20,000 bases of DNA. It comes from Scenedesmus sp. PABB004. Taxonomy: Eukaryota. How positions within the stretch are numbered: the stretch's first letter is position 1; each line of letters opens with the position of its first letter. This document shows, one piece after another, positions 9,205 to 12,200 of this stretch. The stretch lies in contig JABVCE010000050.1 of assembly GCA_014905635.1 (NCBI GenBank), positions 52,158-72,157 on the forward strand, in the 5' to 3' direction. The position numbers and the translations under genes were made by a program. The notes under the pieces are model-generated. The model ran no database searches. It was not told where the DNA came from and saw only the letters and a program-made list of their open reading frames with translations.

Positions 9205-12200
9205 ATGGCATCGCTCAAGGTCTCGGCGCCAGATGGCGTCAAGGTGAGGCGCCCCGGCGGCGCGGCGCAGCGCGGCGGCTGCGCTGCTGCTGCCGGCGGC
9301 CGCGCGGCCGCCGCAGCGCGCAATCGTGCGCGCCAGCCTGGATGCGGAGCGGCTGCTCTCTCTGGCAGCTGAGGCGCAGCGTTGCGCAGGTGTACACGGT
9401 GGGCAGCGGCAAGACGATGCCCGCGTGGCTGTCCGAGGCCAAGAAGCGCGCGCTGCGCAAGGACGAGGACTACAGGTGCGCCTGCGCCAGGGCGGGGGTC
9501 GGGGTGCCGGGAGGGAGGGCGGGACGGCCACGCGCAGCGGCGGCGCGCGGCAGCAGGGCAGCGCGCGGAGCACGCTGACCTGACGCGCGCTGCCCGCGTG
9601 CAGGCGGCGGCTGGAGCTGCTGCAGGACCTGCAGTTCCCCTCTGCCTGCCAGCGCATCAAGATCACGCCCGACCAGCAGTACATCTTTGCGACCGGCTAC
9701 CACCCGCCCATGGTGCGCGCGGCGCGGCGCCGGCCGCGCGGCGCGGCGCGGCGCGCGCGGGGGCCCGCTGCGGCGGTTGCGGGGGTGATGATCTTTCACT
9801 TTTGCCTCATACTTCGCTGAAAGCCGCTCGCGGCCATGAGGAGACACAAGTGAACACACCTGACCCGCCACGCCCGCGCGCGCGCGCCCGGCCAGCCGCG
9901 CCCGCGCGTGCGGCGCCGCGCCGCCAACGCGCCGCGCACGCCGCCGCCCCCTGCCCTCCCCGCCTGCCGCCCGCGCCGCCCGTGCTGCCCCTTGGCGGCG
10001 GCGGCGCGCAGGTGAAGCTGTACGACCTGCACAACCTGTCGCTCAAGTTTGACCGCCACCTCGACGCCGAGGTGGTGGACATGGTCGTGCTGAGCGACGA
10101 CTACTCCAAGCTCGCCCTGCTCTGCGCCGACCGCTCCATCTCCTTCCACGCGCGGTTCGGGTCGTACACCAAGACGCGCACGCCCCGGCAGGGCCGCGAC
10201 CTCGCGTACGCGCACGCGTCGGCGGAGCTGCTCGTCGTGGGCAGCGCGCCAGAGGTGTGGCGGCTCAGCCTCGCGGAGGGGCGCTTCATGGCGCCGCTGC
10301 CCGCAAAGTCGAGCGGCATCAACGCATGCGGTGAGCACACCGCGGCGCGGCCCCGGCGGCGGCGCGCCATGCCTGCGCACGCCGCCCGCGGCGCGCCGCG
10401 CCGAGCGCCCGCCGCCGCGCCTCCGCCGCCGCCGCGCAGGGCTGAGCCCCACGCACGGCCTGTTTGCCGCCGCGGGCGAGGACGGCCTGCTGGAGTGCTT
10501 CGACCTGCGCCAGCGGGGCAGCGTGGCGGTGCTGGACGCGGCGGCAGCGGCCGGAGCGCCAGGTGGGCGCCGCCGGCGGCGCAGCGGCCGCGCGGGGGTC
10601 CACGCGCCACGGCACTGACGCCGCCCTCCGCCTCGCCGCGCAGGCGCGCAGCTGACGGCGCTGCGCTTTGACGACAGCGGGCTGCAGCTCGCGGCGGGCA
10701 CCAGCAGCGGGCTGGTGGGGCTGTGGGACCTGCGCTGCGCCGCGCCGCTGCTGGTCAAGGACCACATGTACGGCGCGGCCATCCGGGACATCAAGTTCCA
10801 CAGCGGCGCGGTGCGGCACCGCGCGCGACCCAGCCCCCCGCGGCCAGCGCGCGCCCGCCTGCGCAGCTGCTCAGCGCAGCGCCCGCCCCCGGCCGCGCGC
10901 GCAGGCTGGCGTGGGCGGCGGCGGCAGCTCGCTGGACGTGCGGCGCGTCATCAGCGCGGACAGGCACATCATCAAGGCGCGGCGCGGCGCGGCGCGGGGC
11001 GCGCGGAGGGGGGGGGGGACCTCCAGCGCCGCGCCGCCGCGGCGCATGCGCTCGCGCGAGTGCGCCACGCATGCGCCCGCGCCGAGCGGAGCCGCCCCGC
11101 GCCGCCGCGCGCCGCGCGGTCAGGTGTGGGACGCGAGCAGCGGCGCGGGCTACACCTCGATCGAGCCCGCCGACGGCGCGGATATCAACGACGTCGCGCT
11201 CTGGCCGGGCAGCGGGCTGCTGCTGGTCGGCAGCGACGCGCCGCGCATCGGCAGCTACTTTGTGCCCTCCCTCGGCCCCGCGCCGCGCTGGTGCTCCTTC
11301 CTGGAGGGCCTCACCGAGGAGCTGGAGGAGGCGGCGCCCGCGGTCTACGACGACTACCGGTGAGAGGCGGGGGGGGGGGGGGGTGAGCGGCCCGGCGGCG
11401 CCGCGCGCACGCCGCGCGCACGCTGCGCCGCGCCCGAGCACGCGCCGCGCCCGCCTGCGCGCGCGCGCCGTGCGCAGGTTTGTCACGCGCGCCGACCTAG
11501 GGCGCCTCGGCCTGGAGCACCTGCTGGGCAGCCCGCTGCTGCGCGCCTACATGCACGGCTTCTTCATGGACGCCCGCCTCTACGCCAAGGCCGCCGCCGC
11601 GGCGCAGCCGTTTGCGTACGAGGCGTACCGCGCGGCGCGCGTCGCGGCCAAGCTCGAGGAGGAGCGCCAGGGCCGCATCAGCGTCGTGCGCAAGCTGCCC
11701 AAGGCGAGGCGCCGCGGCGCGCGCGCGGGGCGCCGGCCCCCGCTGCAGCGGCCGCGCCACTGACGCGCGCCCTCTGCCGGCCCCGCGCCCGCAGGTCAAC
11801 CGCGCGGTCGCCGCGCGCCTGCTGGCGCAGCAGGAGGCAGAGGCGGGCGACGCCGCGGAGGGCGGCGACGGCGCGCCGGGCGCAAAGCGCCGCAAGGGCG
11901 AGCCCGCGTCCAACCCGCTCGCGGACGAGCGCTTTGCGGCGATGTTTGAGGACGAGGCGTTCACGGTGGACCCGCTCAGCGACGAGTACCGCGCGCTGCA
12001 CCCCAACCTGCCCGCCCCGGGCGCCGCGGGCGGCAGGCGCGGCCAGGACGCGCTGCTGGCGGAGCACTTCACGCCGCTGTCGGACGAGGACAGCGACGGC
12101 GACGGCGCCAGCGACGGCGGCGCCAGCGGCAGCGACGGCGACGCCGACGACGGCAGCGACGACGGCAGCGACGACGGCCCGGGCGAGGCGCCGCAGCAGC

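Follow-up and report, generated by a model that had tools for sequence, protein, structure and literature searches.

The closest described systems are the snoRNAs entered together as 'snoR69 / CrCD06' in the synonym table of PMC5122169. In the supplements of that survey CrCD06 is a Chlamydomonas reinhardtii family of five copies, and all five rows of the 2016 alignment are Chlamydomonas sequences. On the plant side, Table S4 of PMC8053127 names SnoR42 and AtsnoR69 as the guides assigned earlier to G1418 (old numbering G1415) of Arabidopsis 18S rRNA, enters the methylation of that nucleotide as 'No' and gives as the reason 'SnoRNA not expressed'; the RiboMeth-seq values reported for it in three wild-type replicates are 0.05, 0.03 and 0.19. 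According to the same source, 145 of the 244 sites that had earlier been predicted or reported were not confirmed, so that a match to rRNA is not in itself proof of methylation. The supplement of PMC8351944 carries Gm1415 as a predicted site (snoR69/42) that was not mapped and is without human or yeast equivalent, and the mapped sites listed for Arabidopsis, tomato and tobacco include none between Um1384 and Gm1434. In the literature searched, this G is present in print as a prediction, with no demonstration of its methylation found, and the search likewise found no RiboMeth map of an alga.

The locus presented here lies within a NOL10/Enp2 gene in a 20-kb window, this term denoting the whole stretch of DNA that was analysed. 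The ten exons of the gene splice into a 750-codon frame with no internal stops and each of the six exon pieces scanned matched NOL10 Pfam models, five of them exceeding the curated cut-off, confirming the identification of the host made in the first-pass annotation. Intron 3 is the longest of the nine introns, measuring 299 nt against 81-147 nt for the other eight, and the two that flank it, with which its length had first been contrasted, are of 128 and 109 nt. The AT-richer island reported within it is equally evident in figures: GC content is 51% across the span from box C to box D, compared to 91% for the remainder of the intron. The distance from the 5' splice site to box C is 72 nt, and that from box D to the 3' splice site 148 nt. 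Coordinates of all features are collected in Table 1.

Table 1. Features of the NOL10 gene, its third intron and the predicted snoRNA, in window coordinates
Feature	Position	Strand	Remarks
NOL10/Enp2 host gene, 10 exons	9205..12670	+	750-codon spliced frame; PF23098, PF23097, PF08159
Host intron 3, GT-AG, 299 nt	9713..10011	+	
Predicted snoRNA including terminal stem	9779..9868	+	presumed mature ends, about 85-90 nt
Terminal stem (5 bp), 5' arm	9779..9783	+	
Box C, GTGATGA	9785..9791	+	TGATGA invariant in 3/3 aligned copies
Stretch fully complementary to 25S rRNA over 13 nt, located 11-23 nt from D'	9794..9806	+	out of register, probably chance
Spacer-spacer stem (7 bp), 5' arm, adjoining guide	9795..9801	+	fold and shuffles
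Antisense element before D', pairing perfectly with 18S rRNA over 14 bp	9802..9815	+	D'+5 nucleotide is C9812
Box D', CTGA	9817..9820	+	
D'-C' hairpin, 4 bp, 4-nt loop	9823..9834	+	fold
Box C', ATGAGGA (TGAGGA variant)	9836..9842	+	common to 3/3 aligned copies and CrCD06-1 to -4
C'-D spacer	9843..9859	+	not conserved; comparison with rRNA, U2 and U6 gave no in-register target
Spacer-spacer stem, 3' arm, within C'-D spacer	9848..9854	+	
Box D, CTGA	9860..9863	+	
Terminal stem, 3' arm	9864..9868	+	

Several features of the surroundings may be recorded separately. Two of the nine NOL10 introns have GC-AG splice sites (window 10977-11123 and 11704-11794) and the C-terminus of the protein is a long glycine/arginine-rich tail of RGG type (window 12470-12670). 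A search of viral contigs for NOL10 relatives found none. The neighbouring genes, at 268-8841 and 13080-13731, we take by eye to be saccharopine-dehydrogenase-like, metaxin-like, NIF/HAD phosphatase-like, a proteasome beta subunit, Yip1-like and RAMP4-like; no oddities were noticed among them.

The intronic element presents a complete box C/D layout, having C near its 5' end, D near its 3' end, a closing stem, and internal D' and C' boxes. The four boxes and the 5-bp terminal stem are placed as in the first-pass annotation, although the D'-C' hairpin, described there as five base pairs around a 2-nt loop, folds as four base pairs around a loop of four. The sequence RTGATGA has a single occurrence, at 9785, on the + strand of the window. 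No other C/D candidate in the window has a convincing in-register match, the one match recorded being of 9 bp, on the minus strand at 10975. A Rfam scan of the window, a check suggested together with the original description, returned no family at gathering score. The weak and unrelated C/D matches obtained, with E values of 1-2.3, were SNORD12 (16.8 bits for a gathering score of 43), snoU31b (15.6 for 37) and snoU54 (15.5 for 35), and nothing relevant was returned for the two homologues described below. The label 'unannotated' is therefore right as regards Rfam, but not as regards the literature, where the family is described as CrCD06 (PMC5122169).

Both spacers were compared, on both strands, with the genome's own 25S, 18S and organelle-type SSU loci, one of each, the 25S and 18S loci overlapping across the rDNA spacers. 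The C-D' spacer contains a perfect 14-bp complement to the genome's own 18S rRNA, occupying positions 2-15 from D' and in the D'+5 register. The paired site (G000:C54 8542-8555, minus strand) falls within mature 18S and outside rDNA introns, and its sequence is found in all five nuclear 18S copies fetched; counted on the alignment, the G opposite the D'+5 nucleotide is position 1443 of the Rfam SSU model. The significance of the match was assessed by shuffling the 25-nt spacer 20,000 times (dinucleotide-type) and comparing the products with 8,297 nt of rRNA gene: one shuffle yielded an in-register match of 14 bp or more, and five yielded at least 14 bp anywhere. For comparison, PMC8053127 regards as a guide at least 9-10 contiguous base pairs to rRNA or snRNA spanning the fifth nucleotide before D or D', a span which the 14 bp found here include. 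With such a target in its own 18S rRNA the snoRNA is not the orphan guide that the first-pass annotation had thought possible, while the box C/D snoRNA proposed there for this intron is borne out by the anatomy, by a second copy and by homologues. Additional base pairing up to 100 nt from the 18S site was considered and set aside as unsupported: it amounts to 6 bp in the NOL10 copy and, in the second copy, to 7 bp consisting of GC repeat, and the metagenome homologue does not share it.

As a separate observation on the rDNA itself, the matches to the 18S and 25S models extend over 3,322 nt (L007 1501-4822) and 4,235 nt (L003 1501-5735), respectively, well beyond the lengths of the models. Such spans suggest that several introns, probably of group I, are present in the rDNA.

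The predicted target G sits 16 nt upstream of the conserved U25/snoR19-type site, which published site lists give as Gm1434 in Arabidopsis, Gm1428 in yeast and Gm1490 in human. We take U25 to be the family name of the guides for these nucleotides, and the position of their site within its 18S motif is likewise our assumption. An independent check on this placement is that counting 16 nt upstream leads to Arabidopsis G1418, a nucleotide to which guides had already been assigned. By the same offset, the target G predicted from the guide is equivalent to Arabidopsis G1418 (old G1415) and to yeast G1412.

A second copy is present in the same genome (L002 1501-1585; G000:C46:1139114-1139198), where it occupies a 229-nt GT-AG intron adjoining a JmjN exon, and two pattern searches of the genome agree in finding these two exact copies and no others. 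This second copy is identical to the NOL10 copy at 47 of 48 nt over 9797-9844 and differs from it in the D spacer and the flanks. A pattern scan of metagenome contigs gave 30 matches. Twenty-nine were dropped as chance matches for want of a C' plus D pair, and the single one with both boxes downstream (L028 751-848, minus strand) lies in a 335-nt intron and retains the guide. The host of this homologue has an FG-rich first exon, from which we read it as a nucleoporin-like gene, and two pieces without a Pfam match. In an alignment of the three copies an 18-nt block covering guide and D' is invariant, as are the cores of C, C' and D. The three host introns, in NOL10, in the JmjN gene and in the FG-rich gene, are unrelated. 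Since the other two copies reside in introns of other genes, conservation in orthologous NOL10 introns, by which the first-pass annotation would have had the element judged, would be a misleading criterion.

The rRNA match and this conservation, rather than stability of fold, are the main support for a snoRNA. The free fold is modestly stable (z -2.17; 5 of 200 shuffles), and in the naked RNA the guide is paired with its own C' box: nucleotides 9805-9810 of the guide are complementary to the TGAGGA-type C' at 9836-9841, a relationship seen in all copies, CrCD06-1 to -4 included, and one through which the free RNA folds with its guide hidden. The 7-bp stem between the two spacers would leave the adjoining guide free. 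Shuffles of equal stability numbered 28 of 5,000 for the NOL10 copy, against 2449 and 935 of 5,000 for the two remaining copies; being significant in one copy of three, the stem was rejected as a conserved element and is a weak feature at most.

On this evidence we consider it highly probable that the element is a box C/D snoRNA with a single guide, belonging to the CrCD06/snoR69 family, and that it is expressed from NOL10 intron 3 and directs methylation of the 18S G. By the standard pathway a processed RNA would be transcribed as part of the NOL10 pre-mRNA, and its release from intron 3 would be followed by trimming to a length of about 85-90 nt. The C/D core proteins would bind at C/D and at C'/D', and their binding would have to undo the pairing of guide and C' box seen in the naked RNA. 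The complementary D' element would then pair with its 14-nt target in 18S rRNA, which lies in the head of the subunit, allowing fibrillarin to 2'-O-methylate the G opposite D'+5. In this reading the D side is not a guide, its probable partner being the 5' spacer; as a guide the C'-D spacer was rejected, its best rRNA-sense match being 9 bp, including two G-U pairs, at 5-13 nt from D, and its comparison with U2 and U6 giving at most 6 bp. Textbook snoRNA biology is sufficient as a mechanism for all of these steps.

The alternative that survives best, though we think it unlikely, is that an expressed snoRNA binds 18S rRNA as a folding chaperone with little or no methylation, or else that the NOL10 copy stays silent as a spare for the second one. 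The unmethylated state of the equivalent Arabidopsis site (PMC8053127) would suit such an explanation, as would the absence of the site from those listed for Arabidopsis, tomato and tobacco and the lack of a human or yeast equivalent in the supplement of PMC8351944, and the genome does have two copies. However, the Arabidopsis negative is ascribed in Table S4 of PMC8053127 to a guide that is not expressed, and all four boxes of the NOL10 copy are intact. Furthermore, the register of guide to D' is identical in the NOL10 copy, the second copy, the metagenome homologue and CrCD06-1 to -5, a constancy that a chaperone would not need.

A second alternative arises from a perfect 13-bp complement between the 5' spacer, at 9794-9806, and the genome's own 25S rRNA, present in all four 25S copies fetched. 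With the 18S guide held fixed, at least 13 bp was reached in 96 of 20,000 shuffles, and in 9 of 20,000 trials in which the 5' 10 nt were replaced at random; the second copy keeps 10 bp. The RNA might on this basis have two targets, its 5' spacer acting as a switch with overlapping addresses on both subunits, the 18S Gm guide and the 25S pairing, the latter alternating with pairing to the RNA's own D-side spacer, which resembles that 25S sequence. If this were true, assembly of the small and large subunits would be linked from inside the NOL10 gene. We nevertheless give it little credence, less than the chaperone or spare. The match lies off the D'+5 register, five of its 13 nt belong to the 18S guide, it was found after the fact, and the CrCD06 sequences in the published supplements have a different 5' spacer. 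The metagenome homologue also pairs poorly with the 25S site as it stands in the present genome (-13.1 vs -21.8 kcal/mol). Because it is out of register, shortened to 10 bp in the other genomic copy and, judged against this genome's 25S, not retained by the metagenome homologue or CrCD06, the 25S match is treated here as probably due to chance. A further resemblance concerns the D spacer of the second copy, which is similar to a 12-nt stretch of the 25S gene (L003 forward 4726-4737); the similarity is in sense orientation, meaning that the spacer cannot pair with 25S rRNA there, and it too is probably fortuitous.

Least probable is that the intron contains chance or degenerate sequence here, or that the RNA is an orphan directed at something other than rRNA. 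Such a reading would agree with the absence of a Rfam family at gathering score and with a D-spacer scan confined to rRNA, U2 and U6, but is largely refuted by the in-register 18S match, by copies conserved in three different host introns and by the identity of the guide with that of CrCD06.

With the single-guide snoRNA as the preferred reading, comparison may be made with the known systems. U25/snoR19 resembles it in being a box C/D snoRNA that guides methylation of a G within this stretch of 18S rRNA. The U25/snoR19 nucleotide (Gm1428/Gm1434/Gm1490) is nevertheless not its target and, as the two targets are 16 nt apart, the snoRNA belongs to another family. Arabidopsis AtsnoR69/snoR42, compared here by position and not by sequence, share the predicted rRNA position; they differ in that Table S4 of PMC8053127 has their site as unmethylated and their guide as not expressed. 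A short-motif search of the Ostreococcus tauri list, in a supplement whose line breaks could hide an example, found no such guide.

The closest likeness by eye is to CrCD06 as given in the supplements of PMC5122169. CrCD06-1 to -4 have the same guide, GCCTCATACTTCG, and the same box D' as the NOL10 copy, making 17 identical nt, and CrCD06-5 has 15; the TGAGGA-type C' box, the small D'-C' hairpin, the length of about 85 nt and the variable D side are also shared. In CrCD06-1 to -4 a 6-bp spacer stem is found at the same place as the 7-bp stem of the NOL10 copy. Differences lie in the sequences of the 5' spacer, the 3' spacer and the hairpin, and in genomic arrangement, since CrCD06-1 to -4 are, from their listed coordinates, in tandem about 140-160 nt apart whereas the two copies here are single and in introns of different genes. 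It is exactly the guide-D' block that is conserved across the four sequence sources. From these links the genome is probably that of a green alga. As the guides are identical, the identity implies an 18S target for CrCD06, presumably the same G. The NOL10-intron element is very likely a new member of the CrCD06/snoR69 family, a real snoRNA gene and not an orphan. A specific and testable 18S G is thereby singled out, unmethylated in Arabidopsis and unlisted in tomato, tobacco, yeast and human, with a guide that is invariant in these algae; its ribose methylation may be one that green algae have retained and that land plants either lost or never employed. CrCD06 is thus extended to two more algal sequences and to three unrelated host introns, which illustrates cleanly how a snoRNA gene can move from one host to another.
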